Origin: Planctomycetota bacterium
GTDB taxonomy: Bacteria > Planctomycetota > UBA8108 > UBA1146
Direction of reading: 5' to 3'
NCBI GenBank assembly: GCA_036338595.1
Contig: JAYZBV010000037.1
Span: 71,550 to 135,549 of the forward strand
Length of the DNA: 64,000 bases
Shown: positions 5,372 through 28,866 of the stretch, in pieces
How the letters are laid out: each line of letters starts with the position of its first letter
How positions within the stretch are numbered: position 1 is the stretch's first letter
The notes under the pieces: model-generated
What the model was told of the DNA's origin: nothing
The model's input: only the letters and a program-made list of their open reading frames with translations
The model's database searches: none
Translations under genes and position numbers: made by a program

Positions 5372-5653
5372 CTATTGTTCATCCTCGAGGTATTCCCCGA
5401 GGTCGATATCATGCTGTCTCTCGTAATCGATCAACTTCTGTATCCTGAGGATATCCGCTTCGATCGTCTCCGAGAGTTCAAACAGGTGAGGCTTTTTCTT
5501 GAGACGTGCCTCAAGATCAACCGTCATTTCTTTCCACGATCCCTCGTATAGTTCTTCTCGCAGCACGAGCAGCGTTCGCTCCTGCCGAGACAGCCGCTGC
5601 AGAAATTCGCGATGGTCCGCGGTCACTGCGGCTCTCCCCCTGTCGTAACCCAT
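5372..5653 (-). CDS. Small helical hypothetical protein
   Basis: 93-aa ORF with normal composition, co-oriented between two genes with short gaps. Confidence 0.7.
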   Translation of the reverse strand: MGYDRGRAAVTADHREFLQRLSRQERTLLVLREELYEGSWKEMTVDLEARLKKKPHLFELSETIEADILRIQKLIDYERQHDIDLGEYLEDEQ

Positions 5654-5666
5654 CGGTGCCAGATCC

Positions 5667-6392
5667 TCAGGATCCGGAGAATTCGTGGGTCACATCGACC
5701 CATTTCTTCTTTTCAAACTGGAAGGAGTCCATCGAGGTGAAGAACTCGTCTCCTGGACGATGGAACTCCAGCCGCATCACCCGCTCGGTCAGCCTGACAC
5801 CGTTGTTCGGTAATTCCTCGACCTGAATATCGTCGATCAGCCCATGGACATCGATGATGATTCGATCCGCTTCCGGATCGATGGCATTGAAGATAGCAAC
5901 ACATTCACGTTTATCGCCTGCGGCAAAATCGATTCCCAGTTCTCCAGCACCATTTTTCTTGAGCATGTCAACCCGTGAGAAGAGTCGCTTACGCTCACGA
6001 CGCTCGACTGCTTTTTCTACCCAAGGAAGGGCAATGTCAGTGTAGCGATGGTTCTTGTCGGAACTGGCCATCATGCCGAGATGGAAGGTCGAGTCGATAC
6101 CGCTCTTGTTCTCGATGGTGTAGGGCAGATACCAGTAGGTCCGTCCGCTCGCTGGAACTCCATCCGGGCGAAGATCGTTTCCCTTGCCGCCAAAGATGGT
6201 GATCTGACGAGGCCGCTCGAACTTCAATTCGAGTCGGGCAATCCCCGGATCGTCCTGAGCATCGAGTGAAAATACACCACCCGAGAACCCGGCCAGAATC
6301 ATCACCATCAACAGTGCCAGTCCGGGTCTTGCCCAGCTACCTGGAATTGAAATCACTCGTGAATGTGTCTTCAGCACAGTGGCGTCGATCAT
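5667..6392 (-). CDS. Exported hypothetical protein (beta-rich)
   Basis: Hydrophobic N-terminal segment (LALLMVMILAGF) and YWYLPYTIEN motif; start uncertain. Confidence 0.7.
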   Translation of the reverse strand: MIDATVLKTHSRVISIPGSWARPGLALLMVMILAGFSGGVFSLDAQDDPGIARLELKFERPRQITIFGGKGNDLRPDGVPASGRTYWYLPYTIENKSGIDSTFHLGMMASSDKNHRYTDIALPWVEKAVERRERKRLFSRVDMLKKNGAGELGIDFAAGDKRECVAIFNAIDPEADRIIIDVHGLIDDIQVEELPNNGVRLTERVMRLEFHRPGDEFFTSMDSFQFEKKKWVDVTHEFSGS

Positions 6393-7497: not shown

Positions 7498-7695
7498 TCA
7501 GTCAGTCTCTGCTGGCAGCCCATCCGGAAAGTCATCGGATTCCAGCGGTCGCTGGCCAATCTTGTACTGATTTCTTAGCCAACCGCCAAGATCCCGATCC
7601 CGGCAACTGTCACTACAAAAGGGAAAGCAGCGAGATCCCTTCTCCACTGGAGAGTTTGGATCCTTGCATACGAGGCAAAGCAATTTGCGTTTCAA
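7498..7695 (-). CDS. yacG: DNA gyrase inhibitor YacG (DUF329)
   Basis: CLVC...FPFCSDSCRDRDLGGWL...YKI; TTG start overlaps the upstream stop. Confidence 0.88.
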   Translation of the reverse strand: MKRKLLCLVCKDPNSPVEKGSRCFPFCSDSCRDRDLGGWLRNQYKIGQRPLESDDFPDGLPAETD

Positions 7696-7997
7696 GATGA
7701 TGATCCATCTTTGCTCTTCGGCTTCGACGAACTGTCGCCGTCGGTCTTTTCCTTCTTGGGAGACTCCTTCGATGCCGCTCCCGACTCTTCCTTTTGCCGT
7801 TTCTTGTAATCAGAACTGCGGTAGTCAGTCTCGTAAAATCCACTGCCTTTGAAAAGGATGCCGCCTCCGGCTCCGATGAGGCGCTTGAGCTTTTTTTCTC
7901 CGCACTCGGAACAGGTGCGCTTCAACTTCTCATCTACTTTTTGAAACAGTTCAAAACGGTGATCGCAATGCTCGCACAGATAATCGTAGGTTGGCAT
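7692..7997 (-). CDS. FmdB-family zinc-ribbon protein
   Basis: MPTYDYLCEHCDHRFE...CSECG...FKGSGFYETDY. Confidence 0.92.
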   Translation of the reverse strand: MPTYDYLCEHCDHRFELFQKVDEKLKRTCSECGEKKLKRLIGAGGGILFKGSGFYETDYRSSDYKKRQKEESGAASKESPKKEKTDGDSSSKPKSKDGSSS

Positions 7998-7998
7998 C

Positions 7999-8559
7999 TC
8001 ACGCCTCCTCGGAAGCGGGTTCTTTGCGAGCCACGATGACTCGGGCTGCTCGAATCAGATGATCTCCGCAGCGATATCCCTTCTCGATCTCCTCGACAAT
8101 CTCGCCATTACGAGCATCCGGTTGATCGACCTGTAGCATCGCCTCATGGATCTCAGGATCGAAATCTTCCCCGACCGTTGCGACCGACTCGATGCCCAGT
8201 TCCAGCAATATCTTGTCGATCTTTCCCGAGATCAGTTTCAAACCATCGCGAACTCCATCGACACCCTCTGGCTCGGAGGAGTCCACTTTCAGAGCCGCCC
8301 ACAGGCCGTCCAGCACCGGGAGGAATGTCCTGAATACATCCGAGATGGCTCGCTTTCTCGACACGGCTCGCTCTTCAAGAGTCCTGCGTCGAAAGTTCTC
8401 GAGATCCGCCCTGGATCTTTGCAGTTGCTGGACGAGGAACTCCTGGTCCTCACCACCCGATTCGTCAGCAGTCTCCTCATCTGCAGAGTCCGAGGAGACG
8501 TCTGGCCGTTTCTCTTCCTCATCTTGAGGGATCGACTGATCTTGATCTTCGCAGTTCAT
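7999..8559 (-). CDS. grpE: Nucleotide exchange factor GrpE
   Basis: RADLENFRRR, FDPEIHEAM, KGYRCGDHLIRAARVIV. Confidence 0.95.
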   Translation of the reverse strand: MNCEDQDQSIPQDEEEKRPDVSSDSADEETADESGGEDQEFLVQQLQRSRADLENFRRRTLEERAVSRKRAISDVFRTFLPVLDGLWAALKVDSSEPEGVDGVRDGLKLISGKIDKILLELGIESVATVGEDFDPEIHEAMLQVDQPDARNGEIVEEIEKGYRCGDHLIRAARVIVARKEPASEEA

Positions 8560-8571
8560 CGAGACCTCTTC

Positions 8572-9696
8572 CTAACCAAAGTATTCCTTGAATCTCTCGA
8601 GAAACCCTCGCCTGCGGGTTCCCACTTCCGTTTCCTCGATCTCGGCGAGACGCAGTAGCAACTCTTCCTCCTCCGGGCCGAGTTTACTCGGGACCTCGAT
8701 GGTAGTCTCGACCAGTTGGTCACCCTTGCGACTGGACCCAACCGAGCGGAATCCCATCTTCCTCATCCTGAGAATATCGCCACTGTGCGTACCAGGAGGG
8801 ATGGTGAGCACCGCCTTGCCGTCGAGGGTCGGCACCTCGACCTCGCAACCGAGGGCAGCCTGGGAGTACGAGATCGGAAGTTCAAAGCAGACATGGTCAC
8901 TCACGCGCCGAAAGAAGGCGTGTCGGTGATAGCCGATGACAACCTGCAGATCCCCTGCTTGAGCTCCTTGAGGACCTTCATTGCCGCGACCGGCAACTCT
9001 CAGGATCATTCCATCCTCGACACCGGCCGGAACTTCTACCTCGATCGATTCTGCCTTCTCTACCAGCCCTGATCGATGACAATCAGTACAGGGATCCTCG
9101 ATGATTTCTCCTCTGCCAGAACAAGCGGGACAGGGAGTTCTTACGCTGAAGAAGCCCTGCGAGCGAAGTACCTGGCCAGCTCCCGAGCAGGTACCACAGC
9201 GAATCGGTTGGCTGCCACGGCTCGCACCGGATCCCGAACAAGATTTGCAACTGACCATCCTTCTCAATTCGATGGTCCTGCGAATCCCGGTGGCGGCTTC
9301 CTCGAGGGTCAGCTGGAGATGAGCTCGAAGGCTCTCTCCCCTTCGGATCCGGCTTCGACCGCCACCGAAGAGATCGCCAAAGATGCCACCGCCTCCACCA
9401 CCACTGAAGATGTCGCCAAAGACACGGAAGATGTCCTCGACATCGGAGAAGCCAGCGCCCTGTCCGATTCCAGACAGGCCGTCGTGACCATGCGCATCGT
9501 AGATACGCCGCTTCTCGGCATCTCTGAGTACGTCGTAGGCTTCAGCAGCCTCCTTGAACTTGCGTTCAGCATCGGAATCTCCGGGGTTCTTGTCTGGATG
9601 ATGCTTGAGGGCCAGCTTGCGGTAGGCCTTCTTGATCACATCATCCGAGGCATCCCGGGTTACCCCCAGGACATCGTAGTAATCCCTCGCTGACAT
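8572..9696 (-). CDS. dnaJ: Chaperone DnaJ
   Basis: J-domain with HPD, G/F-rich region, four CxxCxGxG-type repeats, C-terminal domain. Confidence 0.97.
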
Positions 9697-9707
9697 CCGT
9701 TTCTCCC

Positions 9708-11312
9708 CTAGACGAGGGCGCCTTCTACGGCATCCTCATCTTTTTCCAGTTCGGTGATGGCAGTATCTGAGGTCAAAAACAGGCCCGCAACACTTGCAGC
9801 ATTCTGCAGCGCGACTCTCAGCACCTTTGCGGGATCCACGACACCGGCTTTGACCAGGTCGACCACCTTGCCCTTGACGCCGTCGAAGCCCATCTCCAGA
9901 TCCTCGTATTCCATCACCTCTGCAACCACTGCAGGTCCGTCATGTCCACAGTTCCGGGCCAACTGAGCCGTCGGTTCCAGCAATGCATCGGCAACCACCT
10001 GTACTCCGAAACGAGCATCTCCTGTGGCGCGTGTCGCCGCCACCTTCTCGACGATTTGCAAGAAGGCAGTCCCTGCACCAGGCACGATCCCCTCGGCCAT
10101 CGCCGCTCGGGTTGCACTGAGTGCATCTTCTGCTCGTGCTTTTCGCTCCTTGATCTCCAGTTCAGTGGTTCCGCCGACGCGAATCACGGCAATCTTGCCC
10201 ATGATCCTGGCGAGTCTCTCCTCGAGCTTCTCCTTGTCATAGTTCGACTGGGTCTGCTCCATCTGTGCCTTGATCTGCTGGCAGCGGCTCTCGATCGCCT
10301 CTTTGTTTCCAGTACCCCTGAAGAACAAGGTGCTGTCCTTTGAAACCTCGATCTTGCGAACCGTTCCGAGCTGGTCCTTGCCAACCTGGTCCCATGTCAC
10401 TCCGGTGTCCTTGGCGATCATCTGTCCGCCAGTGACGATGGCGAGATCTTCAAGCAATGCCTTTCGTCTGTCTCCAAATCCTGGCGCCTTGATGGCCACG
10501 ACTTCCATCACACCTCTCAACTTGTTGAGGAGTAATCCGGCGAGAGCTTCTCCCTCCACGTCCTCAGCGATGATCACCAGTGGGCGACGTGAAGAGACGA
10601 CCTGTTCAAGAACAGGAACCAGATCCTGGATGGTGGAAATCTTGTGGTCGGTAAAGAGGATCCATGGCTTTTCCAGTACACAGACAGCGGCAACCCTGTC
10701 GGTGATGAAGTAGGGCGAGATCCACCCCTTATCGATCTCGAGACCCTCGACCAGATCCAGAGCTGTCTCGACACCATCGTTTTCCTCGACGGTGACCACT
10801 CCGTTCTCGCCGACCTTGTGAATCGCTTCACCGAACATCTTTCCCAGTTCCACATCATTGGCAGCGATGGTACCGACCTGGACCACTTCCTTTTGCTTCT
10901 GAACGGGGCTAGAAATCTCCTCTAGTTCGCGAACGGCAGTTGCGACCGCCTTGTCGATTCCATTACGCAACTCCACCGGGTTGACTCCGGTCATGGCGAA
11001 TCTTGCGCCTCGCTCGATCATCGCTTCTGCCAGGATGATCGACGAAGTGGTGCCATCGCCGACCTCCTTGTTGGTCTTGCTTGCGACCTCGTTGACGAGC
11101 CGAGCACCCATATTCTCGAAGGGCTGAGAAACCTCGATCTCCCGAGAAACGGTCTGGCCGTCCTTCGTCAGTTCGGACTTTCCCATACTCTTCTCGAACA
11201 GAACATTTCTTCCGCCTGGACCGTAGGTCACCTTCACAGCCCTGGAGAGAGTGCGAACTCCCTCCCGGAGATGGCGTCTGGCATCATCGTCGAAGAGAAT
11301 CTGTTTGGTCAT
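9708..11312 (-). CDS. groL: Chaperonin GroEL (divergent paralog, no GGM tail)
   Basis: [41 protein letters not shown]. Confidence 0.95.
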
Positions 11313-11342
11313 CTTCCTTCTCCTTTGTAATTCCCTGGGGGC

Positions 11343-12974
11343 CTAGAAAGCGCCTGCGCCTTCATGGTCATGGTGGTGATCCTCATCAGCCGCTTCCGAT
11401 GGGATCTCCGTGATCACAGCATCCGAGGTAAGAATCATGGTGGCGCTACTGACAGCATTCTGGAGAGCTCTCCTGATCACATCACAGGAGTCGATGATGC
11501 CCGTCTCCATGAGATCGCGCATCTCCAGGCGAGCGAAGTCGTAGCCTGTCGTCGTATCCTCCGAAGCTCGGATCTCGCGAAGCAAGATGGACGGCTCGAC
11601 ACCCGAGTTCCTGGCCAGCTGTCGAAATGGTTCTTCGAGAGCATCGGCCAGGATCTGTGCAGCAACCCTTTCGAGAGGGTCGCGCACCTTCATCCGGGCC
11701 ACTTCATCGGCGCAGTGGATCAACGCCACTCCACCACCGGGCAGTATTCCTGCTTCGAGAGCCGAGCGTGTCGCAGCTAGAGAGTTCTCGAAGCGTTTCT
11801 TGCGCTCCTTCACCTCTCCCTCTGTCGATCCTCCCACCCGGATCACGGCGATCCCACCGATCAATCGAGCGAGTCGCTCCTGTAACTTCTCTCGATCGTA
11901 ATCGCTGCTGGCCGCCTCGATCTCGAGCCGGATCACACGGCAGCGCTCTTCCATATCACTCTTTTTCCCACCGCCATTGACGATGGTTGTCATCTGAGAG
12001 TTGATCTCGATCTTCTTGGCGGTGCCCAGATCAGAGATCTGGATCGATCCAGGATCAATCCCGAGGTCAGAGAAGATCGCCCTGCCACCGGTCGCGATGG
12101 CTATATCCTGAAGCATCGCCTTGCGCCGGTCTCCGTAACCCGGGGCCTTCACTGCTGCAACCTGCAACACACCGCGTTGGCTATTGACAACCAGCGTGGT
12201 GAGCGCTTCTCCGTCGATATCCTCTGCGATGATCAGTAGTGGCTTTCGCTTCTCTACAACTTTTTCAAGCACGGGAACGAGCTGAGCCAGGTTGGAGACC
12301 TTCTCTTCCAGGATCAGGATGAACGGATTCTCCAGTTGGATCTCTGCTGAGTCGGGATTGGCAACGAACTGCTGGGAAATGTATCCCCGATCGAAGTAAA
12401 GACCTTCTTCAACATCCAGCGTTGTCTCGATCCCTTTTCCCTCCTCGATGGTACAAACACCATCGTTGCCGACCTTGTCGAGCGCAGAGGCGATGGTCTT
12501 GCCGATGCGGTCATCGTTATTGGCTGCAATGGAGGCCACGCTGAGGATCGAATCCTGATACTCGATCGGCTCGGAGAGAGCTTCGAGTTTCTTGCATATG
12601 CGATCGGTACAGGAGAGCAGCGCACGCTGCAGCAACACCGGATTCTCACCCGCCATCACCTGCCTCATGCCTCGGCGAAATACGGCCTCTGCGAGCACCG
12701 TTGCGGTCGTACTTCCGTCCCCAGCATCCCGGGCGGTCAGTGTGCCCGCTTCACGAATCAGACGGGCACCGATGTTCTCGACCCTGTCCTCGAGTTCGAC
12801 TTCCTCCGCGACCGTGGCTCCATCCTTGGAGACACGGGGTCCACCCCAGGAGCGATCGATCACTGCACTTCGTCCCCGTGGACCCAGAGTCGTGCGAACC
12901 GCGCGGGCCAGTTTGTGGGCACCCGAGAGTAACTTCTCCCTGGCTTCATCTTCAAAAGTCAGTTCTTTCACCAT
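11343..12974 (-). CDS. groL: Chaperonin GroEL (divergent paralog, His-rich tail)
   Basis: TLGPRGR, GDGSTTAT, KAPGYGDRRK, YDREKLQERLA; GGAGG RBS before ATG 12974; C-terminus EDHHHDHEGAGAF. Confidence 0.95.
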   Translation of the reverse strand: MVKELTFEDEAREKLLSGAHKLARAVRTTLGPRGRSAVIDRSWGGPRVSKDGATVAEEVELEDRVENIGARLIREAGTLTARDAGDGSTTATVLAEAVFRRGMRQVMAGENPVLLQRALLSCTDRICKKLEALSEPIEYQDSILSVASIAANNDDRIGKTIASALDKVGNDGVCTIEEGKGIETTLDVEEGLYFDRGYISQQFVANPDSAEIQLENPFILILEEKVSNLAQLVPVLEKVVEKRKPLLIIAEDIDGEALTTLVVNSQRGVLQVAAVKAPGYGDRRKAMLQDIAIATGGRAIFSDLGIDPGSIQISDLGTAKKIEINSQMTTIVNGGGKKSDMEERCRVIRLEIEAASSDYDREKLQERLARLIGGIAVIRVGGSTEGEVKERKKRFENSLAATRSALEAGILPGGGVALIHCADEVARMKVRDPLERVAAQILADALEEPFRQLARNSGVEPSILLREIRASEDTTTGYDFARLEMRDLMETGIIDSCDVIRRALQNAVSSATMILTSDAVITEIPSEAADEDHHHDHEGAGAF

Positions 12975-13071
12975 GTTGGCTCCTCCTCGCAATCATCCGA
13001 ACTGGTCACCCGAGGCTGCGAGATGAGGCCACCCCCACGGGGTCGCCACTCGCCTATCGTTCCAGTTCACG

Positions 13072-13087
13072 AGCAAAAGCGTGGCCA
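13072..13087 (-). promoter_or_regulatory. Candidate sigma54 (-24/-12) promoter of the groEL-groEL-dnaJ-grpE operon
   Basis: Minus strand TGGCCACGCTTTTGCT has GG-N10-GC spacing with TGGC and TTGCT, about 100 bp upstream of the groEL start. Confidence 0.55.
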
Positions 13088-13153
13088 TCCGATTCGCCAA
13101 CTGCCTTCACAAGTACATACAGAACAGGGACTTGTAGAAAAAGCGATGGAACG

Positions 13154-13236
13154 TGGCAGAAGTACACCTGCCACATCGACAGACCCGGGGATGGAGGGGG
13201 CACTGCTGCTGCCAGGATGGCAGATTCCGACCTGCC
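13154..13236. promoter_or_regulatory. Two copies of TGGCAGA-N5-ACCTGCC (candidate activator/repressor sites)
   Basis: Copies at 13154-13172 and 13218-13236, 64 bp apart; each contains the GGCAG-N8-CTGCC palindrome. Confidence 0.55.
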
Positions 13237-13239
13237 GTT

Positions 13240-15246
13240 TCAGCGTGCCCAGATGCCGCCGCCGCGAGTGTCGCTGACCAGTTTGACGCGAACATCTCGG
13301 ATCTCGAGCCGGGTGCCATCGGCGATGTAAAACACGAACCCACCGGTAGAGGGAAGCCGCGTCGTCTCGGGGTCGAGGGAAATCTCATCGGAAGAGTCGC
13401 CGTACCGGAGTACGACCTGATCGCCATGCACCTCGAGGTCCACTCCGACCCAGCGATTCCTGGGAAAATCGTCCCCGAGTTCCAGCAATGGAGAGGTTTG
13501 ATCTCCGACACCACCGCCACGGGAATTGGTCCTTGGAGAGATGCGCAGGTCACCGTCGCGAATGTTGACCTCGAAATGACAGACATAGTCTTCCCAGTGG
13601 TTCGAGAAGAGGCCGATGAACATGTCACTGCCGGATCGGTTGTCGCCGAGCAGTACTGCACTTCCTTCTCGCTCAAGGATTCGCCAGTTTCCCGCCTGGC
13701 CGCTTCCGACCAGCTGTCTGTCGCTCGTCACCACCCAGTTGTAGAGGTTTGTAGGTGCGAGCTTATGACTCCATGCGACCGATTCTCTCAGATCTCGCCA
13801 CCGTTGCTCTCGCTCGGCCTTCTTTCGCTCTTCCTCCAGACGCTTCGCCTCGGCGATCAGCGCCTCCGCCACACCCTCCTGCTCGATCAGCATCGCCAGT
13901 CCCTCGCGCTGAACCTGTTTCACCAGGTCTTCCTTGAGTTTCCAGACATCGGGGGCTTCATCCTCGACTCTCTCGTCGAGTGCTTCGATCGTGGCGATGG
14001 CGATGTCGTCGTATCCCTTTCGGGCATACTTTCCTGCCTTGGAGGAAAGTTCGTCTAGGCGCTGCTTGTAACGATGTTGCTGCTGAGCGTCGATTCGGAG
14101 GTTGTCCAGTTCGTTCTCGAAGGACGCTTCCAGCACCACTTCTGCGCCGTCAAAGACCTTGGGAAGACCTTCCAGCAGTTGCACCGCTGCTGCGAAATCT
14201 CCACGCTTGAAGGCAGCCTGCACATCTCCCTTGAGAGTGTGCCACGCTTGGTCCACCTCCGCTCTCCAGGTAGAGAGGAGCGTCGCGCGCAGAGCCGCAG
14301 CTTCCTTTCCAGCAGTGGTATCCGCGTATTCTCTGGCGATCGACCCGAAACGCAGTGCGGCAGAGAGCCGGTCATCCGGCTCCTTTCGATTGGACTGCTC
14401 GATCCGGTTCAACGTCTCGCGAGCCTGATCCTCGCGCACCTGACGGGGATCGACGACCGGTTCCTGGGCGACCTTCGTCTCCTCTTCCTTCACTTCAGGT
14501 GTGGAGTCGGGAATCATCATCACCCCCACGATCACGACCACGACCAGCACAGCGACGCCGATGAGGATGAGGGGCAACGGACTCTTTGAAGGCGGAAGAT
14601 GATCTTCTGACGAAGCGGCATCGGTGCCCACAGCAGCGAGCCTTGCCGCTTTCCTGCGCGGTGGTCTCCCACGTCCCGCTCGAACTGGCGCGCCGGCTCG
14701 CTTGGCCCCCGGGGGCGTTGCAGATGTGGGTCTGGGGCGTGGCGACTGCGCAGCGGCGGCTTTCGCGGCCGCCTGCTTCGCGGCCGCCTGCTTCGCTGCC
14801 GCCTGCTTCGCGGGAGTATTCTGTGTGGCCGCCTGCTGTGCGGCCGCCTGCTGTGCCGCGGCTTTCTGCGCGGCCGCCTGCTTCGCGGCCGCCTGCTGTG
14901 CGACGGCTTTCTGTGCGGCCGCCTGCTTCGCAGCCGCCTGCTGTGCGGCGGCTTTCTGCGCAGCCGCCTGCTTCGCAGCCGCTTGCTGTGCCGCGGCTTG
15001 CTGTGCCGCGGCTTGCTGTGCGGCCGCCTGCTGTGCCGCGGCTTGCTGCTGTGGCACGGCCGGCGTATCCGAACTCACGCTCGGGGGAGACTCTGACTCG
15101 GCACCGGGGCTGAGATCCACTCGTCGGGTCGGGACCCGCTTTCCACCGGAGGCACCGGCAGCCCCCTTCGTTCGAGGAGTGGGAACACGCCGCCTCTTCC
15201 TGGGTCTTCGCTCGCTGGAGTCCTTCGTTTCCTCGTCAGATGTCAT
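13240..15246 (-). CDS. Bitopic membrane protein: disordered/Ala-Gln-repeat N-terminus, TM helix, periplasmic helical domain, C-terminal DUF1080/ConA-like beta-sandwich
   Basis: 668-aa ORF. TM LPLILIGVAVLVVVVIVGVMMI. C-terminal NW...GNWRI...WEDY...RWVGVDLEVHGDQV...GGF...EIRDVRVKL pattern. ATGA overlap with the upstream gene. Confidence 0.75.
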   Translation of the reverse strand: MTSDEETKDSSERRPRKRRRVPTPRTKGAAGASGGKRVPTRRVDLSPGAESESPPSVSSDTPAVPQQQAAAQQAAAQQAAAQQAAAQQAAAKQAAAQKAAAQQAAAKQAAAQKAVAQQAAAKQAAAQKAAAQQAAAQQAATQNTPAKQAAAKQAAAKQAAAKAAAAQSPRPRPTSATPPGAKRAGAPVRAGRGRPPRRKAARLAAVGTDAASSEDHLPPSKSPLPLILIGVAVLVVVVIVGVMMIPDSTPEVKEEETKVAQEPVVDPRQVREDQARETLNRIEQSNRKEPDDRLSAALRFGSIAREYADTTAGKEAAALRATLLSTWRAEVDQAWHTLKGDVQAAFKRGDFAAAVQLLEGLPKVFDGAEVVLEASFENELDNLRIDAQQQHRYKQRLDELSSKAGKYARKGYDDIAIATIEALDERVEDEAPDVWKLKEDLVKQVQREGLAMLIEQEGVAEALIAEAKRLEEERKKAEREQRWRDLRESVAWSHKLAPTNLYNWVVTSDRQLVGSGQAGNWRILEREGSAVLLGDNRSGSDMFIGLFSNHWEDYVCHFEVNIRDGDLRISPRTNSRGGGVGDQTSPLLELGDDFPRNRWVGVDLEVHGDQVVLRYGDSSDEISLDPETTRLPSTGGFVFYIADGTRLEIRDVRVKLVSDTRGGGIWAR
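14749..15048 (-). repeat. Coding tandem repeat: about 20 x 15 bp (QQAAA/KQAAA/QKAAA) with a nested 45-bp unit x3
   Basis: Directly visible gcggccgcctgctgt / gccgcctgcttcgc units. Confidence 0.95.
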
Positions 15247-15512
15247 GACCCCTCGCTCCCGATGACCGTCTCATCGCCCGCCGAGGCATCATCGTCGGAG
15301 ACCGGGTAGAGGATCTCGATCAGTTGCTGCAGTTGCTCTGGAGTCAGGTGACCCAGTTCGACCAGGACCTGGCCCAGCAGCGGCACTTGCTTGCCCTCGT
15401 TGCGCAGTCGCTCCTGGATCGTCAAGGCCTCGTAGATCTGGGTCTCATTCACGACTCCCTGTTCGATGGCCACTTCTCCGAAGAGGCGCCGATATCTGTC
15501 TGCATCTGACAA
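15243..15512 (-). CDS. Stand-alone MshEN-like (putative c-di-GMP-binding) protein
   Basis: TTG 15512 with AGGAAGGAGA RBS; two half-motifs RLFGEVAIEQGVVNETQIYEALTIQ and LLGQVLVELGHLTPEQLQQLI. Confidence 0.75.
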   Translation of the reverse strand: MSDADRYRRLFGEVAIEQGVVNETQIYEALTIQERLRNEGKQVPLLGQVLVELGHLTPEQLQQLIEILYPVSDDDASAGDETVIGSEGS

Positions 15513-15699
15513 CTGACGACTCTCCTTCCTGGCCCTGGGTCGCAGCGGGCAAACCACAGTCACTGGTGATCCACAACTGCAAGCCTGGCATCGCCATCGA
15601 ACAGGCAAGGTGCTCGCCACGCCACGAGAATGCGGAGGCACTCGATGGCAACCTCGTTGGCGAGGATATCAGGCTAGTTTGACGGACGCCACCGCCCCA

Positions 15700-16578
15700 T
15701 CACTGGTGACCATCGACCACCAATGGTTCCTCACCGCTGTATAGACTGATTCCCGGGATGTCGCTCGACCCTGTCAACTCATGGCGCAATTCCAGAACCT
15801 GTCTGAGGCAGTTCAGTTTCTGCTCCGAGGTGGTCACTGCAGCGGCATCGGAGGAGGGAGATCGGCCCCAGTGAAGAGGAATTCCGGCAGTGGTATGGAG
15901 ATGCCAGCGGCGTGCTCCACCTTCCTCGACGGTACTGGATATCTCGTGAAGGAAGCCGGGAACTCGATCGAACACCTTATCCGTCCACAGCACCGACAAC
16001 AGCGAGAACAGTTCCTCGAACTGTTTCCCCACGAGGATGAAACCCGATGTAGCCGCGGCGAGTTGCTGCTGCTGGGCACCAACCCCGACGGGGATGTATT
16101 CCGGTATGCCCCACTTCGGATCGAGGAAGTCTCCAGGTTGGCGATCGATGATCCTTCCTGACCCGTCTGCGAGTAGCCAGCCATCCAGGCAACGAACCCC
16201 GACAGAAGGGCGCCGGAAGCGCCCTGAGAATCCAATTCCGTCCGCTGTGCGCTCAACGCTTTGAATCGAAGAGATCCAGGGATTCGTCGACAGTTCTCGC
16301 TTCACATCCTCTTGCCAGTGAACCGATTGCAGAGAAACCCGCGAGGGGATGTCTCTGAGGGAACCGAGATGGCCGCTGAACTGCTCGGGAAACCAGTCTG
16401 GCAGTGTTGAAGGTTCGACGGACCAGACACCGCCCGCTCGTGTCAAACGAAGATCCACCTCATTCTTGGCGATGACGAGAAATGTGCCAAAGATGATCAG
16501 CAGCAGGAGCGCCACCATCCAGTTACGGCCGGCCCCTTTTTCTGATCCGTTGACTTCTGTGGCCGCTTCGCTGATCAC
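15700..16578 (-). CDS. FtsQ/DivIB-like protein (divergent)
   Basis: Position after murB; single N-terminal TM; POTRA-like ELSTNPWISSIQSVER followed by FRRP...WLLADGSGRII. Confidence 0.6.
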   Translation of the reverse strand: MISEAATEVNGSEKGAGRNWMVALLLLIIFGTFLVIAKNEVDLRLTRAGGVWSVEPSTLPDWFPEQFSGHLGSLRDIPSRVSLQSVHWQEDVKRELSTNPWISSIQSVERTADGIGFSGRFRRPSVGVRCLDGWLLADGSGRIIDRQPGDFLDPKWGIPEYIPVGVGAQQQQLAAATSGFILVGKQFEELFSLLSVLWTDKVFDRVPGFLHEISSTVEEGGARRWHLHTTAGIPLHWGRSPSSDAAAVTTSEQKLNCLRQVLELRHELTGSSDIPGISLYSGEEPLVVDGHQ

Positions 16579-17468
16579 TCACGCCCTCCCCCCCGATGGC
16601 CTGGCATGATCACCTCACGCTCCAGATTCACGGAACTCAACTTCTGCACCTGGCTCTGCACACGTTTGATCAACTGTTCGATGTCCTGAGATGTCGCCCC
16701 ACCTTCATTGACAATGAAGTTGGCATGCACGGTGGAAACGCGCGCTCCTCCCAGAACCATTCCCTTGAGGCCGCACTTCTCGATCAGAGCCCCGGCACTC
16801 TCTCCAGGAGGGTTGCGAAAGATGCAGCCGCAAGATCTCAGGGCGAAGGGTTGAGTATTCAGCTTTCTCTGTTTGATCTCGGCAGTTCTTCTCTTCAACT
16901 CCTGAGGATCGGATCCTTCGTTGAGCCGCAATCGAACCGCGGCGACAACCCGATCTTCAATCCCCGAGTAACGGTAACGCCAATCCAGGTCACGACTGTC
17001 GACCCATTCGCGTCCCTGGCCCGGCTCCATCAGCAGAATCTCAGAAACGCGGTCGCCGATGTCCTCACCACCGGCGCCGGCGTTTCCCCACACAGCGCCC
17101 CCGATCGTCCCTGGTATCCCCGGGAATGATTCGAGTCCTTGCCAGCCATGCTCGTTGGCCCGGTCGACCAGTTTTTCGAGTTGGAAGCCCGCCTCGACCT
17201 CGATCACTCCCGGCTCGACAACCTCCTTGGCCTTCAACCCGGTGGTACAGATGACCAGGCCATCGAATCCGTCATCGGCAAAGAGTACATTCGAGCCGTG
17301 TCCCATGAGAAACAGGGGAAATCCCGCCGTGTTACCCCAGTCGACCTGCTGCTGCAGTTCTTCCAGCGATCCAGGGCGACCAAAGTACCTCGCTTCACCA
17401 CCGGTCCGATACCAGCAACGCTGGCGCAGCAGCACCGATTCCTGGATGTTCAGTGGCGGGGTACTCAT
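16575..17468 (-). CDS. murB: UDP-N-acetylmuramate dehydrogenase
   Basis: GHGSNVL, GIPGTIGGAVWGNAGA, SCGCIFRNP, HANFIVN, LEREV. Confidence 0.95.
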   Translation of the reverse strand: MSTPPLNIQESVLLRQRCWYRTGGEARYFGRPGSLEELQQQVDWGNTAGFPLFLMGHGSNVLFADDGFDGLVICTTGLKAKEVVEPGVIEVEAGFQLEKLVDRANEHGWQGLESFPGIPGTIGGAVWGNAGAGGEDIGDRVSEILLMEPGQGREWVDSRDLDWRYRYSGIEDRVVAAVRLRLNEGSDPQELKRRTAEIKQRKLNTQPFALRSCGCIFRNPPGESAGALIEKCGLKGMVLGGARVSTVHANFIVNEGGATSQDIEQLIKRVQSQVQKLSSVNLEREVIMPGHRGGGRE

Positions 17469-18859
17469 CCTGGTTGTCCCTGCTGCACAGACGCAACCTC
17501 TTCACGTATCCGAGTACCTATCTTGTCGATGTCGCCCGCACCGAGCGAAAACACCACGTCTCCCGCCTTGACGATTTCTTGCAGGTCATACACCGCATCC
17601 TCGGAGCCGATGATACGCGCGGCAATGCCGCGCGATCTCAACCTGGCTGCAAATTGTGAGAGCAAGTCGGTGGGGAATTCCAGGGAATTTTCCCTCACAT
17701 GATAGATCGGCAACAACAGCACCTCGTCGGAACAATTGAAGGCGTCGGTGAACTCGGTCAGGAAGTGTTGCAGACGAGTTGCCTGGTGGGGCTGAAACAT
17801 TGCCCAGATCTTGCGATCGGGAAACAGGCCCCTGGCGGTCTCGAGAGTCGTACTGACCTCGGTAGGATGGTGTGCATAGTCTTCAAACCATTCGACTTCA
17901 GGCAACACGTCCCGACGTTCGAAGCGTCGTTTGACTCCCCTGTAACTCTCGATTCCGGCGCGAATCTTATCCAGATTCACACCGAGTTCCGCAGCCAACG
18001 CAACGGCTGCAGTCGCGTTGAGAATCGTGTGGCGTCCCGGAATCGACAATCGGACCTCTAGTTTTGCAACCCCGTCATGACTGATCTGGATGAGGGGATG
18101 CAGCCCGTCCTCGATCACCGTCGATCTCCACCCGGGCCCCTGATCGAGACCGAACAGGATCGGTTCGACATCTGCAATACCGCTGAGGCGGTCTGCATGA
18201 AGTTCTGGAATCACGACAGGGGCACCGGTGCGGAATCCCTCGAGGAAGGAACGAAAGGTCTGCTGAACCGCGTCCAGGTCGCAATAGATCTCGGGGTGAT
18301 CGACCTCGATGTTGGTGATGATCCCGGCGCTCGGACTCAGGTTCAGAAAACTACGCTGGTACTCGCACGCCTCGACGATGAAATCCTCACCGTTACCATT
18401 TCGCCAGTTGCGGCCACCGATCGCTTCCAGTTCCCCTCCGATGATGACGGATGGATCTCTCCCCGCCGCAATCATGATGCTCGTCAACATTCCAGTCGTA
18501 GATGTCTTGCCATGGGTTCCCGCAACTGCGATGGCGTGGCCTGTTGCCGCCAACCGTCCCAGAACCTCGCTGTAGAGAAGCACCTCGATTCCGAGTCTGC
18601 GCGCCTCGGCGACCTCTGGATTGCTGACTGGAACCGCTGCCGATCGGATCAGCAACCCTGCATCCATTGGCACATTTCGAACATCGTGGCCCTGAATGAA
18701 GCGGATGCCCGCCCCGCGGAACATCTCCTGAAGCCGACCGTCCTGATCGCTCCCCGAGACCTCGTGTTTACGTTCTCTCAGCAGCATCGCCAGGCCGCTG
18801 GTCGCAGTTCCACAGATGCCCACGATGTGGATCTTTTCGGGAATGGCTCGGTCACTCAT
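17465..18859 (-). CDS. murC: UDP-N-acetylmuramate--L-alanine ligase
   Basis: VAGTHGKTSTT, EACEY, GVKRRFE, DYAHHPTE, FQPH. Confidence 0.94.
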   Translation of the reverse strand: MSDRAIPEKIHIVGICGTATSGLAMLLRERKHEVSGSDQDGRLQEMFRGAGIRFIQGHDVRNVPMDAGLLIRSAAVPVSNPEVAEARRLGIEVLLYSEVLGRLAATGHAIAVAGTHGKTSTTGMLTSIMIAAGRDPSVIIGGELEAIGGRNWRNGNGEDFIVEACEYQRSFLNLSPSAGIITNIEVDHPEIYCDLDAVQQTFRSFLEGFRTGAPVVIPELHADRLSGIADVEPILFGLDQGPGWRSTVIEDGLHPLIQISHDGVAKLEVRLSIPGRHTILNATAAVALAAELGVNLDKIRAGIESYRGVKRRFERRDVLPEVEWFEDYAHHPTEVSTTLETARGLFPDRKIWAMFQPHQATRLQHFLTEFTDAFNCSDEVLLLPIYHVRENSLEFPTDLLSQFAARLRSRGIAARIIGSEDAVYDLQEIVKAGDVVFSLGAGDIDKIGTRIREEVASVQQGQPG

Positions 18860-19560
18860 CGACGGTCATTCCTATTTCGATCTGGAACCCGATCGGGAAC
18901 TCGCAGCAGGATGCCAATCTTGAGCACCTCTGGCACAGCGATTTGATCACGGTTCGCTTCCAGGATCGGCTTCCAGTCCTCGACACCGTAGTATTGTCGG
19001 GCGATGGAGGCGAGTGTATCTCCAGGCTCCACCTCGTGGATCAACGCCGTGTTGACGAGTTCCTCCCGACCGGGTGGAGGAGCAGTTTCCGTGTTGCCAG
19101 GGAGCCGGATGATTTGCCCCACCTTGAGACGATCCGGGTCGATATCTCGATTGAGTGCGATGATCTCTCCCGATCGACCTCCGTGACCCAGCACCTCAGC
19201 AGCGATTTTCCAGATGCTGTCTCCTGGACGAACGGTCCACTGTTTTGGAGTCTGCTGTGTTGGAGTCTGCTGGGGAACGTTGGAACGCTGCGGGTCGCCA
19301 CCGAGTGGCGATGGAGCGACCGGAGATGGCTGCAGCTTCGCTGATGGATCCTGGAGCGCTGGCGCCAGTGGAATCTCTTCGAGGAGTTGACGCGATCGTT
19401 CATCGACCGAATACCAGGAAAGAGATACCGGGCTCGTCATCACATCATCTGCGCTTCCCGGCAATGGGATGCCGTCTGGGCTGATACCGTTACTCACTGC
19501 GAAGATCCCTGCGATGAGAACCAGGATACAGAAACTCCACCGAAGAGCGTTCATCTTCAT
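18856..19560 (-). CDS. Membrane-anchored protein with two LysM domains
   Basis: N-terminal TM; WTVRPGDSIWKIA...LKVGQIIRLP and HEVEPGDTLASIA...LKIGILLRVP. Confidence 0.9.
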   Translation of the reverse strand: MKMNALRWSFCILVLIAGIFAVSNGISPDGIPLPGSADDVMTSPVSLSWYSVDERSRQLLEEIPLAPALQDPSAKLQPSPVAPSPLGGDPQRSNVPQQTPTQQTPKQWTVRPGDSIWKIAAEVLGHGGRSGEIIALNRDIDPDRLKVGQIIRLPGNTETAPPPGREELVNTALIHEVEPGDTLASIARQYYGVEDWKPILEANRDQIAVPEVLKIGILLRVPDRVPDRNRNDRR

Positions 19561-20660
19561 CCAGTCACCTCCAGTCGAGGTTGGTGGAGGAGATCCGGAT
19601 CGTCACTGCCTGAGATCCCGATCCGCTCACCCAGATGGGTCGCCACCATCTCTGCAATCCGCTGCGCCGCGCCTGGACGACCCAGTTGCCGGGAGCAGAT
19701 CGACATCTGTTCGAGCCTGGACCGGTCCTGAATCAATGATTCAATCAAGTCAGCGATCTGTTGCGGAGACTCCTGGTCGACAACCATCGCACCGCCGTGG
19801 TGTGCAACATGGCTGGCATTTCTCAGCTGATGTTGATCACCATGATGGAGAAATGGCCAGTATAGGGCTGCTCGCCCGACGCAACAGACCTCGGCAACGG
19901 TCGATCCTCCCGCTCTCGACACTATCAGACTGGCATCGATCAGTGCCTGGGCAGGATTGTCGAGGTAGGAACGGACCGTCGCATCGACACCCGCACATCG
20001 CCATCTGTCCTCGATTCCCTGCGCTTTGCCGGCACCGCAGATGTGATGGACCCGAAATGCACCCGGCTGCCTCAGATGGGTCGCTGCCTCGAGGATGGAC
20101 TCGTTGACCGCCTCTGAGCCCTGGCTTCCTCCCATGATCAGCAACTCCGGAAGGCCGCTGCTCATCGGCTGACTCGGAACAAAACGATCGCGTACCGGAC
20201 AACCGAGTAGGGCAGTTCGTGATCGCAGGCCACGAGGTGCATTTTCAATCGGCCAGCTGAGGAAAATCTTGCGAGCGAATCGAGTCAGTAACTTATTTGC
20301 CAGACCCATCACCTTGTTCTGTTCCAGAATGAAGAGCGGTTTCCCCGAGAGAGATGCTGCGATGCCCACAGCAACTCCAGGACGAGCACCCAGAGCGATC
20401 ACCGCATCGATGCGCTGTTCACGAAGCCAACCGAGTGCAGGTATGACACGGAGCAGAGCCTGATGGATGGTGCCGACTCCCTGCCACGGGGGTGCCAGGG
20501 TTTCCAGATCACAACCCTCGAGGATCTTGCGCTCCAGAGCCGTGCCGTGGTCGAGGAAAAGGACCTCGGCGATGCCACGATCGGCGAGGGCTCTCGCCAG
20601 TGACCATCCCGGATAGATATGTCCTCCGGAGTTTCCCCCTGCGAGCAAGATCCGTTTCAT
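19557..20660 (-). CDS. murG: Undecaprenyl-PP-MurNAc-pentapeptide GlcNAc transferase
   Basis: GGNSGGHIYP, EQN, GCPVR, GGSQG, SRAGGSTVAE, HQLRNA. Confidence 0.92.
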   Translation of the reverse strand: MKRILLAGGNSGGHIYPGWSLARALADRGIAEVLFLDHGTALERKILEGCDLETLAPPWQGVGTIHQALLRVIPALGWLREQRIDAVIALGARPGVAVGIAASLSGKPLFILEQNKVMGLANKLLTRFARKIFLSWPIENAPRGLRSRTALLGCPVRDRFVPSQPMSSGLPELLIMGGSQGSEAVNESILEAATHLRQPGAFRVHHICGAGKAQGIEDRWRCAGVDATVRSYLDNPAQALIDASLIVSRAGGSTVAEVCCVGRAALYWPFLHHGDQHQLRNASHVAHHGGAMVVDQESPQQIADLIESLIQDRSRLEQMSICSRQLGRPGAAQRIAEMVATHLGERIGISGSDDPDLLHQPRLEVTG

Positions 20661-21778
20661 GTGACGCTCACCACCTGTCGAACTCGAGATCGAGAGATCG
20701 CCATCACGACACCCGTCATGCCCATGAACACCGCCAGACCGGTCGATCCATGAGAAAAGAAGGGCAGTGGGATCCCCTTGGTCGGAAAGAGTGCCACATT
20801 CACCAGCAGATTGATCGCTGCTTGCCCCGTGATGGCGATGGTGACGACGCGTACCAGGCAGGCAAGATCAGCATCCTCCACCGCTCGGGAGAGCCTCCAG
20901 CCAAAGATCAGAACCAGCAGATACAGTGTTGCGAGGCACAGCACTCCGATGAATCCGGTTTCCTCCGCATACACCGAAAAGATGAAATCGCTGTATTCCG
21001 AAGGCACGAACAATGTCTTGCTCGATCCCATTCCAATTCCTTTGCCCCACAGCCCTCCACTTCCGATCCCCTGAAGTCCTGCCCACACTTGTGGAACACT
21101 TTCCGGAGAGTGCACCGCCATGAAGCGCTGCTGCATCTCTCCCCAGCGATCTATGACCGCATTCATATTGACCAGTGCTACTGGCAGCATCAACAAGCAA
21201 CAGTACCAGCACAATTTCAACCACCGCAGCAGCGGAATCGCACCCAGAACCAGAATGAATAGTGCACTTCCAAAGTCTGGCTGCACGAAAATCATGGCGA
21301 AGGGGATGCCTACCAGTGCAGCCGCAATCAGTGACCCACTTCGAACCGTGATGGGGCGCCCAAAAATCCCTCGGTAACGCATCATCCCCGTCAGGGCAAT
21401 GGTCGAGATGGGAATGCAGAATTTTGCAAGTTCGGATGGCTGAAACCGCACTCCGAGGTCCAGCCAACGGTGGGCATCGTTGAGTTCTCTTCCCAGCGGG
21501 CTCCACAGGGTGGCCACCAGCAGCAACACGACTCCACCCCAGAGCGGCAGCCAGTAAGTATCCATCCATCTACGCGGAGAAATGAGGTATCCAGCAGCAA
21601 ACAACAGAACACCGAGCCCATACCCCTTCAACTGCTTGAGCCACATCGATGTTGAATTCAGGTCAGTGACACTGGATCGGTAGGACGAGGCGCTGTAGTG
21701 AAAGAACATCCCGATCGCGAGCAACAAGATGACCGCTCCGATGAATCTCGCTCCCTCGACTGCGGGATCGAGGGGCAC
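20657..21778 (-). CDS. ftsW: SEDS family peptidoglycan polymerase FtsW
   Basis: Multi-TM; FQPSELAK, QPDFGS, SDFIFSVYAEETG, PTKGIPLPFFSHG. Confidence 0.9.
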   Translation of the reverse strand: MPLDPAVEGARFIGAVILLLAIGMFFHYSASSYRSSVTDLNSTSMWLKQLKGYGLGVLLFAAGYLISPRRWMDTYWLPLWGGVVLLLVATLWSPLGRELNDAHRWLDLGVRFQPSELAKFCIPISTIALTGMMRYRGIFGRPITVRSGSLIAAALVGIPFAMIFVQPDFGSALFILVLGAIPLLRWLKLCWYCCLLMLPVALVNMNAVIDRWGEMQQRFMAVHSPESVPQVWAGLQGIGSGGLWGKGIGMGSSKTLFVPSEYSDFIFSVYAEETGFIGVLCLATLYLLVLIFGWRLSRAVEDADLACLVRVVTIAITGQAAINLLVNVALFPTKGIPLPFFSHGSTGLAVFMGMTGVVMAISRSRVRQVVSVT

Positions 21779-21813
21779 TGGTGATTCGGATCCAGGAGTG
21801 GCGGTCAGTTGGT

Positions 21814-23181
21814 TCAGGACTCACCCCTCTCTTCGATCCACCGGGTCCTGAGATCGAGGGCGAACTGGTCCAGCGCCTCCGCCCGGGAAGCCTTGAAGAG
21901 TACGGTGTCCCCCTCCTGAAGCTGGCCGACGATTTCCTGGACACCCTGGCCGTTCTTCTCGATGTGAATCACCTCGCCATCACCTGCACTGGCGCCTTCG
22001 GCGAGCCATTCAGCCCCTCTTCCACAGACAAAAACGAGATCGATACAGGATGAGGCCAGATGCCGGCCCGCATCGATGTGGAACTGCACCTCGTTTTCTC
22101 CCAGTTCCTCCATCGTCCCGACTACGGCTAGTCTCCGGCAAGAATCTGAACGACTCAGCCAATCGATCTCCGACTTGAGGGCTTGCGGACTGGAATTGTA
22201 GCAGTCGAGGACAAATTGAACCCCACACACGCGGTGAATTTCATGCCTGAGCGGTGGTAAAGAAATCATCGGAATCGCTTCACTCAACTGCCCGGGATCC
22301 TCGACAAAGTCGAGCACGATCGCCAGCGCAGATTCGAAGCAACGGAGCACCCAATCCGGCCCTGGATCGTATGGCAACGAAAACTCACGAGCTCGCAGGC
22401 GGTCGAGCACCAACACGGAGCCCGGTCCATTTCTTCTCACCTCAAGGTCCCCCGCTGCTCCGGTCCATCGATAACGGGATGCCGATTCTCCGGTGCTGCT
22501 TCGCCACTCGACAGGAGCCCATCGTGCATCTCCTTCGATGTGGTTCAGCATCGAGAACTTCTCTCTCCGGACACCTTCGAGATCGAGCAGACCGCTCAGG
22601 TGTGTCTCGGAGATCGCCGTGATGACGCCGTGCGAAGGTCTTGCCATCTCTGCTCGGGCAGCGATCTCCCCGGGTGAACTGGTCCCCAGTTCGAGCACGA
22701 GCACCTCGGTGTCTGGCGCCGCCTCGAGGATGGTGATGGGAACACCGAGATCATTATTGAAGGAAGCTCTCGGTGCGTGGGACTTGCAGGTGCTACCGAG
22801 AATCGCCTCGATCATGGCACAGGTGGTGGTCTTGCCGACGCTACCGGTCACTGCCACTGCAGCAGTTTGATCTTCCTCCTGCTCTCGAATGGCCCCCGCC
22901 AGCGTCGAGAGCGCCTCTCTGGCACTGGGAGCTTCTATCGAAGCACCCTCATGACGGTCGGAGTAGCCGGGGTCACAGAGAACCGCTGCGGCTCCCAGTT
23001 GCAGTGCAGCATCTGCGTGCTCGATGCCGTGGCAGTGCTCTCCCTGAAGGGCCACGAAGAGGGCACCCGGTGACGCCTCTCTGCTATCGATGACTGCAGT
23101 TCGGATCTCGCTCGATGCATCGCCTCTGACCAGTCCCGCTCTGGCCAGCCTCGCCACCTCCCCCAGAGCGCGGATCCTCAT
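21814..23181 (-). CDS. murF: UDP-MurNAc-tripeptide--D-Ala-D-Ala ligase
   Basis: IDSRE, VTGSVGKTTT, SFNNDLGVP, DCYNSSP, FKASR. Confidence 0.92.
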   Translation of the reverse strand: MRIRALGEVARLARAGLVRGDASSEIRTAVIDSREASPGALFVALQGEHCHGIEHADAALQLGAAAVLCDPGYSDRHEGASIEAPSAREALSTLAGAIREQEEDQTAAVAVTGSVGKTTTCAMIEAILGSTCKSHAPRASFNNDLGVPITILEAAPDTEVLVLELGTSSPGEIAARAEMARPSHGVITAISETHLSGLLDLEGVRREKFSMLNHIEGDARWAPVEWRSSTGESASRYRWTGAAGDLEVRRNGPGSVLVLDRLRAREFSLPYDPGPDWVLRCFESALAIVLDFVEDPGQLSEAIPMISLPPLRHEIHRVCGVQFVLDCYNSSPQALKSEIDWLSRSDSCRRLAVVGTMEELGENEVQFHIDAGRHLASSCIDLVFVCGRGAEWLAEGASAGDGEVIHIEKNGQGVQEIVGQLQEGDTVLFKASRAEALDQFALDLRTRWIEERGES

Positions 23182-26725: not shown

Positions 26726-27060
26726 TTCCCCTGCCCTTCACCCTCAGCACCCAGGTGCTCACGTACCGTGATCGGTGTGAGAACTGCAACCGGTCCCCCG
26801 GAGCTCCCGCCACCGAGATGCGCCATCGGTTCGCGCCCCTCGTCATCGATCTGCATCAGATCGTCTCCCCAGGCGAGTTCGAATCTCAGGGCATCGTTGA
26901 ATGACCTCTTCGTCGACAGATCGATTCGCAGCCGATCGAGCAACTGTTGCTGCGACTCGACATTTCGCTTGAGGCGGATCTTCTGCGCTCCGTCTCTGGC
27001 CAGATCAAATCCGAGCATCAGGATGCAGGCAGCGACCATGACCAGTTTCAGGATGTTCAT
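26722..27060 (-). CDS. FtsL-like small bitopic coiled-coil protein
   Basis: Position between rsmH and ftsI with 4-nt overlaps; hydrophobic N-terminus followed by a leucine heptad segment. Confidence 0.55.
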   Translation of the reverse strand: MNILKLVMVAACILMLGFDLARDGAQKIRLKRNVESQQQLLDRLRIDLSTKRSFNDALRFELAWGDDLMQIDDEGREPMAHLGGGSSGGPVAVLTPITVREHLGAEGEGQGN

Positions 27061-27947: not shown

Positions 27948-27964
27948 CCGCGCCTCCAGTGAGC

Positions 27965-28228: not shown

Positions 28229-28296
28229 TTTTTCCCCCTGATTTTCCCTTCGACCCTTCCCTTTCCCCGGGGAAGAATCTGTTTTCCTGAAGCCCT

Positions 28297-28803: not shown

Positions 28804-28866
28804 CGGTTCTCCGTGTTCTGGCCTCGGACAGGCTGGTGTGGGCGCTGACTCGACCCTGGCCGCTGA

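Follow-up and report, generated by a model that had tools for sequence, protein, structure and literature searches.

We analysed a 64,000-nucleotide stretch of DNA from an uncultured group of Planctomycetota (here the window), in which the cluster of division and cell wall (dcw) genes ends with an ftsQ-like gene and is followed by two further genes on the same strand. The first encodes an 89-residue stand-alone MshEN_N protein, probably a receptor for cyclic di-GMP (c-di-GMP), and the second a 668-residue bitopic membrane protein. Our favoured reading, which we put forward tentatively, is that the pair constitutes a class-specific, separately transcribed c-di-GMP adaptor and envelope tether and is not a core division machine. 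An earlier, sequence-only reading had placed the two genes in the position of ftsA-ftsZ, as a c-di-GMP-responsive scaffold for FtsZ-independent division or polarity; the modest version, an envelope module, is more likely. The features of the locus, all on the minus strand, are as follows.

15243–15512, minus strand: 89-residue stand-alone MshEN_N (GSPII N-subdomain) protein, probable c-di-GMP receptor, from the NF053729 match, family profile and structural model
15414–15485, minus strand: MshEN motif I, residues 10–33; Gly3, Leu21 and Gln24 invariant in 152/152 sequences
15309–15380, minus strand: MshEN motif II, residues 45–68; Leu2 and Gly3 invariant, terminal Gln replaced by Leu, Ile or Val
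13240–15246, minus strand: 668-residue bitopic membrane protein, with an ATGA overlap with the small gene
14746–15048, minus strand: Ala/Gln/Lys pentapeptide low-complexity repeats of the basic N-terminal tail, about residues 67–167, from sequence
14512–14571, minus strand: single transmembrane (TM) helix, residues 226–245, from sequence; hydropathy peak kept in orthologues
13786–14448, minus strand: α-helical stalk, predicted periplasmic, about residues 267–487, from the AlphaFold2 model
13255–13782, minus strand: concanavalin-A-like (ConA-like) β-sandwich of DUF1080/CBM66-type fold, about residues 489–664, from Foldseek, VIA-align and PF06439 matches of orthologues
15663–15693, minus strand: conserved promoter-like element, GGTGGCG at 15693–15687 and TATCCT at 15668–15663, of putative function
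15700–16578, minus strand: ftsQ-like gene, last of the dcw cluster (context), after murC-murB, with one TM helix and a weak PF03799 match
7692–12992, minus strand: groEL-groEL-dnaJ-grpE-FmdB-like block after the pair (context), from open reading frames, domain matches and synteny

The open reading frame (ORF) of the small protein (15512–15243) begins with TTG, has a GGAG 9 nt upstream and is separated by 187 bp from the stop of the ftsQ-like gene at 15700. The start of the 668-residue ORF (15246–13240) overlaps its stop through ATGA, confirming the arrangement read from the sequence. Both ORFs are real and under purifying selection, with dN/dS far below 1. For the small gene, dN is 0.10–0.14 against a dS of at least 1.7 (core, five relatives), and for the large gene dN is 0.039 against a dS of 0.44 (comparison with G004). 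Conservation of the small protein usually exceeds that of FtsQ, MurB and MurC.

The MshEN-like identity of the small protein, proposed earlier from its motifs, is confirmed by homology. It matches NCBIfam NF053729, an MshE-related c-di-GMP-binding domain, at 38.2 bits (cut-off 38), and a profile of 32 family sequences matches PilF (E 2.4e-8), MshE (5HTL, E 4e-5) and PilB. The structural model is a four-helix bundle (pLDDT 87.7), for which the top Foldseek row is 5HTL (probability 1.00, TM-score 0.56, E 0.043; no row at E 0.001). A protein search restricted to 36–139 residues found 716 relatives among 8000 scored candidates, and 100 of the best 120 are 70–79 residues long. Motifs were tallied in these best 120 relatives and the 32 aligned sequences, all 152 of which were parsed; the set is ranked by profile similarity, so that invariance is somewhat favoured. 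The residues that never vary are Gly3 in both motifs, Leu21 and Gln24 in motif I and Leu2 in motif II, all of them described as contacts in MshE (PMC5013675); the positions of both hydrophobic triads, which stack on guanine, are hydrophobic throughout. Position 1 is mostly Phe or Leu in motif I (Phe in 117/152) and Leu or Gln in motif II (Gln in 56/152). The protein of the window has Leu at position 1 of both motifs, within the extended R/K/L consensus (PMC11731258).

In MshE, c-di-GMP binding rests on Gly11 and two Leu triads, while changes of Arg9 or Gln32 cost at most fivefold in binding (PMC5013675). In PilF's GSPII-B domain, Leu at position 1 is native to motif II, and in motif I it gives a Kd of 2 nM (PMC11731258). 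The deviation from the RLG motif, raised earlier as a caveat, is present but does less harm than was feared, since PilF binds more tightly with Leu at position 1 (PMC11731258). By analogy with PilF, the missing motif arginines appear compatible with c-di-GMP binding, and judging from its motifs the small protein probably binds the nucleotide. GGDEF (diguanylate cyclase) domains are found in 61/61 genomes, two of them in the source genome, and the possibility of a lineage without c-di-GMP was rejected on these counts.

The source genome contains 11 NF053729 matches, including PilB-type ATPases. A second stand-alone MshEN-like paralogue (G000:C76:10646-11149) is matched in most class genomes and lies about 60 kb from the first small gene in several genomes of family f1; it sits upstream of genes that we take to be lpxK-like and hldE-like. 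An MshEN-like module also forms the C-terminus of an epimerase (G000:C65:66471-67676), presumably GalE-like.

For the large protein, the tail, TM helix and stalk of the earlier description all hold. Residues 1–225 are basic and of low complexity, with 36 Lys and Arg against 12 Asp and Glu in residues 1–223. The hydropathy peak of the TM helix is conserved among orthologues, and from the basic N-terminal side we infer an N-in/C-out topology. Eight of the 57 orthologous frames (families f2, f3, f4 and f5), a set that includes duplicates and truncated pieces, have a CxxC...CxxC zinc ribbon at the start of the tail; in family f1, Arg/Pro motifs and Ala/Gln repeats take its place, and a profile of the eight zinc-ribbon frames has no match in the source genome. 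The AlphaFold2 model of residues 256–668 (mean pLDDT 88.8, pTM 0.53) shows about 220 residues of helices followed by a β-sandwich. In structure searches the sandwich resembles DUF1080 proteins, CBM66 and lectins (Foldseek E 1e-6), and VIA-align gives a Z of 14.0 to 4jqt (rmsd 2.9, 151 aligned) and of 13.8 to the DUF1080 protein 3hbk (rmsd 3.4, 152 aligned). The DUF1080 assignment thus stands as a fold and fails as a Pfam match of this sequence: a Pfam search of the 668-residue protein gave no DUF1080/PF06439 match at E 0.1, while PF06439 matches 7/37 orthologues (best E 1.1e-5). What we take to be the catalytic motifs of PF06439 were unrecognisable by eye in the alignment. Matches to histone-H1-like proteins, EbpS and fumarase C were rejected as compositional or short; those to histone-H1-like proteins fall on the Ala/Gln/Lys repeat tail and are read as compositional. 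A lipoprotein-type paralogue with stalk and sandwich regions is encoded on contig C73.

Gene order was compared across the class in 35 loci fetched around ftsQ matches. In 34 of them, no more than about 1.2 kb separates the small gene from ftsQ, and the remaining contig ends within the intervening gene; the linkage, first proposed for this locus, is real class-wide. It is co-directional in 30 of these loci and inverted in 4, which belong to family f6. The large gene comes directly next in 21/21 co-directional loci with a long enough contig, as well as in further loci of f2, f4 and f5. Sixteen further small-gene loci comprise nine that are inverted and lack the large gene (f6, f7) and seven that are co-directional, and a single-protein locus search gave 8 close loci. 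Members of f2, f3, f4, f5, f6 and f7 carry a gene for an S-adenosylmethionine (SAM) hydroxide adenosyltransferase between ftsQ and the small gene. No fused small and large ORF was seen in the orthologous loci examined.

The small gene was matched in 57/61 genomes, counting paralogue-only matches. A 301-genome sample of the phylum yielded no small-gene orthologue outside the class, the five weaker matches lying in frames of 373–576 residues. The large gene was surveyed with a 37-sequence profile over all 59 class genomes returned. Its family is present in 40/40 genomes of f1–f5, in one at paralogue level only, and was not detected in 14 genomes of f6 and 4 of f7, two of them near-closed, where FtsZ is also undetected. 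In a tree of MurC and MurB from 24 class members and 12 outgroups, f6 and f7 are grouped (support 99) and joined with f5 (support 100); f4, whose loci lack MurB, is weakly placed. The grouping of f6 with f7 maps the inversion and the loss of the large gene to one branch, so that the co-directional pair is ancestral. In the f4 loci L107–L109, no murB stands between murC and ftsQ.

Little sequence is conserved in the gap from ftsQ to the small gene apart from GGTGGCG/GTAGCG/CTGGC, followed after 17–18 nt by TATC[CT]T. In the window, the TGATATCCT element at 15663–15671, suggested earlier as a possible separate extended −10 promoter, is present and conserved. Within the order, TATC[CT]T occurs at most 260 nt upstream of the small gene in 28/31 loci, against a mean of 1.3 and a maximum of 4 in shuffles and 207/5000 random genome windows, counts that concern a motif picked after being seen and related loci that are not independent. 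It is present in 4/6 loci of f4/f5 and in 0/13 of f6/f7. Genome-wide, the hexamer occurs upstream of genes at twice its frequency in coding sequence. On the sequence side, the promoter-like element and the f6/f7 inversion argue against co-transcription with the dcw operon. Three RNA runs compared with the stretch yielded nothing beyond short pieces of foreign origin on dnaJ, groEL and the repeat.

In the favoured explanation, the two genes would make up a small unit that has a promoter of its own, sits at the dcw cluster's downstream edge and is ancestral to the class. The 89-residue MshEN_N protein would bind one c-di-GMP between its two helical motifs and act as a switchable adaptor, with the invariant residues outside the nucleotide pocket as a putative partner-binding face. 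The 668-residue protein would be an inner-membrane tether, composed of a disordered cytoplasmic tail, one TM helix and a helical stalk that may keep a lectin-like domain with no catalytic role in contact with a glycan of the envelope, for instance peptidoglycan. Where both proteins are present, the adaptor may dock on the tail of the tether or on a shared partner, and c-di-GMP would thereby tune envelope remodelling or attachment. The adaptor presumably has at least one other target, because it is kept where the tether was not found.

Several observations weigh against this explanation. Families f6 and f7 keep the small gene with no large gene found there, and coupling of adaptor and tether is therefore not obligatory. 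The stop–start overlap, whose retention as 4 or 1 nt in 10 loci speaks for the unit, is confined to three compact-genome genera of f1, with gaps of 4–362 nt elsewhere. A ConA fold alone does not establish a glycan ligand. Across the genome, the hexamer has no strand preference upstream of genes (0.334 vs 0.328 per kb), so that the conserved element is promoter-like in shape and not a proven promoter; a scan with the sigma-70 consensus found no site.

It is possible, though we lean away from it, that the genes are neighbours whose order is conserved but whose functions are unconnected: the small protein would be an adaptor or buffer of general use for c-di-GMP, serving for example type IV pilus ATPases, and the large one an independent envelope protein, both hitch-hiking in a stable supercluster, with the overlap reflecting compaction. 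As a control, all ORFs of the contig were mapped onto the fetched flanks of five genomes from other orders. Gene order is kept over about 38 kb (window position −9241 to 28893) in G045 and over about 32 kb in G039 and G044, and the conserved block includes tilS-like, BamB-like, prepilin-type and chaperone genes; on gene order alone, ftsQ can therefore not be singled out as the partner. The survival of the small gene alone and inverted fits independent neighbours as well, as do the second stand-alone paralogue, the further NF053729 matches in the genome and the lipoprotein-type paralogue of the large protein. The flanks themselves point in two directions. All four f4 loci keep ftsQ-small(-large) with groEL not after the large gene, which favours the dcw side, while on the dcw flank of the small gene G042 and G050 carry insertions, 4.6 kb and at least 4.8 kb long, with groEL still adjacent, which favours the other side and also speaks for unrelated neighbours. 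Three points count against two independent genes: the small and large genes are adjacent and co-oriented in five families, including f4 without the groEL link; one upstream element is common to both; and the flip of the small gene and the loss of the large one fall on a single branch.

Unlikely, in our estimate, is that the small protein is a degenerate MshEN_N bundle, a non-binding protein-interaction module like the GSPII-A domain of PilF, which has the same fold and no c-di-GMP binding (PMC12002112). This precedent and four features of the family speak against the receptor assignment. Gln at position 24 is present in motif I of all 152 sequences and in motif II of none; motif I position 2 is Phe across the family; the linker between the motifs has 11 residues in 146/152 and 10 in 6/152, against 5 in MshEN; and motif I position 10 is Gly in only 23/152, including the protein of the window, and Arg or Lys in 125/152. 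In PilF GSPII-B, the Q218E change weakens binding 77-fold, to 460 nM (PMC11731258). The same value also counts against a degenerate bundle, as PilF with one Gln lost still binds; so does the class-wide retention of the two Gly3 residues, the two hydrophobic triads and the motif I Gln24. Since motif II lacks the second Gln, we regard c-di-GMP binding by the small protein as likely, not certain.

The reading from which this analysis started holds that the pair took the ftsA-ftsZ position as a c-di-GMP-controlled scaffold placing FtsQ, FtsW and FtsI for FtsZ-independent division or polarity; we consider it improbable. Planctomycetota division without FtsZ is an open question (PMC12283558), and the lineage does lack detectable FtsZ, as had been assumed: PF00091 matches 0/61 relatives and 13/14 control genomes. 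By sequence, the 292-residue gene is only weakly assigned to FtsQ. PF03799 matches 3/48 of its orthologues (best E 5.6e-4), a profile of the orthologues has no match in the PDB, and among the ESM Atlas neighbours FtsQ_C is found in 13% and POTRA in 10% of members; the assignment is based on the place after murC-murB, the single TM helix and these neighbours. It is supported by the orthologue profile, which in several further planctomycete families detects the gene that follows murB or ddl; in three of those genomes ftsA comes next.

The slot after ftsQ is real in the phylum. As binned, G070 (98% complete) carries murG-murC-murB-ddl-ftsQ-ftsA and then a divergent ftsZ (L160:1-513, L162:1-2117; contigs C34 and C123); ftsQ-ftsA-ftsZ spans two contig ends that overlap inside ftsA. 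Its FtsA scores 232 bits with TIGR01174, over the cut-off, and its FtsZ 201 bits with TIGR00065, under the cut-off of 295, with PF00091 over the cut-off. This ftsZ is of note in a phylum described as FtsZ-less. In G074 (L155:3203-4456, 98% complete) and G069 (L156:5623-6921, 94% complete), ftsQ-ftsA stands at the dcw end and FtsZ was not detected in the genomes; the retention of ftsA without FtsZ suggests stepwise loss. G096 (L157:3348-8493) has a LysM gene, a PilZ-like gene (E 0.0012, under the cut-off) and a 98-residue ORF inside the dcw cluster ahead of ftsQ, and past ftsQ an OmpA-family gene, then a convergent Ser/Thr kinase gene with an MshEN-like N-terminus. The source genome (88% complete) contains five FtsA-family matches, judged by eye to be MreB, PilM-like and other actin-like proteins. 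Apart from MreB and PilM, two actin-like proteins (G000:C33:45334-46377 and C85:39-1457), one of which we take to be MamK-like, offer alternative candidates for a cytoskeleton of division or shape.

The slot, the missing FtsZ, the ancestral order ftsQ-small-large, the closeness of the small gene to ftsQ and the PilZ-like gene of G096 would all fit a division scaffold. The fullest form of this idea is that an ancestor, after loss of ftsA-ftsZ, put division or polar wall growth under c-di-GMP. The MshEN switch would act class-wide, and a lectin-like landmark would grip peptidoglycan and recruit FtsQ, FtsW and FtsI, to be replaced later in f6 and f7, with the PilZ-like gene of G096 as a convergent solution; we hold this to be just as improbable. 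Tested for presence in all FtsZ-less members of the class, as a replacement, the large gene was not found in the 18 genomes of f6 and f7, where the small gene is convergent on the dcw cluster. The small gene has no orthologue in the phylum sample outside the class, and the pair follows murB/ftsQ in 0/15 murB loci from other families. In Planctopirus limnophila, most dcw genes, ftsQ among them, are non-essential (PMC12283558). A functional stand-in for ftsA-ftsZ is not supported, in view of the promoter-like element, the often intervening SAM hydroxide adenosyltransferase gene, the conserved block of about 38 kb and the families in which no large gene was detected.

On the minus strand of the window, the dcw cluster runs from what we take to be mraZ at its head to murE-murF-ftsW-murG-lysM-murC-murB and the 292-residue single-TM gene. 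Within 16575–24668, a LysM gene sits between murG and murC, and there is no room for mraY/murD between murF and ftsW or for ddl between murB and ftsQ, their locations elsewhere not having been searched; the murF-ftsW spacing in relatives is 1.1–1.7 kb. Downstream of the 668-residue ORF follow two groEL-family genes, dnaJ and grpE. The groEL-family genes are in tandem (9708–12992) with groES not between them, and one groES is on contig C49. We presume the FmdB-like, dnaJ and grpE labels of the block from sequence features. Two conserved genes without Pfam matches (93 and 241 residues, 5372–6392) keep their order beside the chaperone block in 4 genomes from other orders.

In the literature searched, which was mostly open-access with subscription papers largely outside it, no description of the pair was found, and the available parts of 10.1101/817700, PMC10068817 and PMC11032199 do not describe it. 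CdgR of Anabaena was rejected as a relative, being unrelated by its authors' statement (PMC10068817). Each part of the pair is of known fold, and stand-alone MshEN_N is already catalogued: proteins consisting only of MshEN_N repeats were listed in 2016 (cce_1044, PMC5013675 supplement). The single-bundle class-wide family, its place at the dcw end and its partner were not found in that literature. The locus offers a soluble class-wide protein of about 70 residues and a defined membrane protein for direct binding measurement. Should binding be true, the MshEN consensus would be extended to Phe at position 2, a long linker and one Gln, and a second messenger would be tied to a gene fixed beside the wall-synthesis cluster. 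Should the division model be true, the pair would be the first candidate organiser of FtsZ-less division in the class.

Compared with known systems, the likeness to FtsA-FtsZ is limited to the genomic position after ftsQ; the pair has no actin or tubulin fold, has its own promoter-like element and was not found in part of the FtsZ-less class. The large protein shares the ConA-like sandwich with DUF1080/3-keto-disaccharide hydrolase proteins (PF06439; 3hbk, 3imm, 3u1x) and CBM66 (4b1m) at Z 11.8–14.0, whereas its identity to them is 13–18%, below Pfam detection, and its sandwich stands on a membrane-anchored helical stalk. FtsN, RodZ, TolA and myxobacterial GltJ combine a disordered or zinc-ribbon tail, one TM helix, a long spacer and a terminal envelope-binding domain. 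Domain and structure searches of the large protein gave no sequence or fold match to these four, and the likeness is an analogy of architecture only. The small protein has the four-helix bundle, two 24-residue motifs, both Gly3, the triads and the first Gln in common with MshE (5HTL), PilF GSPII-B (8PDK) and NF053729, and Leu at motif position 1 in common with PilF. It differs from MshE and PilF in having no C-terminal subdomain or ATPase, in its motif I Phe, linker of 10–11 residues and motif II without the terminal Gln, and in class-specific invariant Tyr, Glu and Pro residues. Cyanothece cce_1044 is likewise an MshEN_N protein without an ATPase (PMC5013675 supplement), but it has two bundles, whereas the small protein has just one, of about 71 residues, and is encoded at a fixed place beside the dcw cluster.

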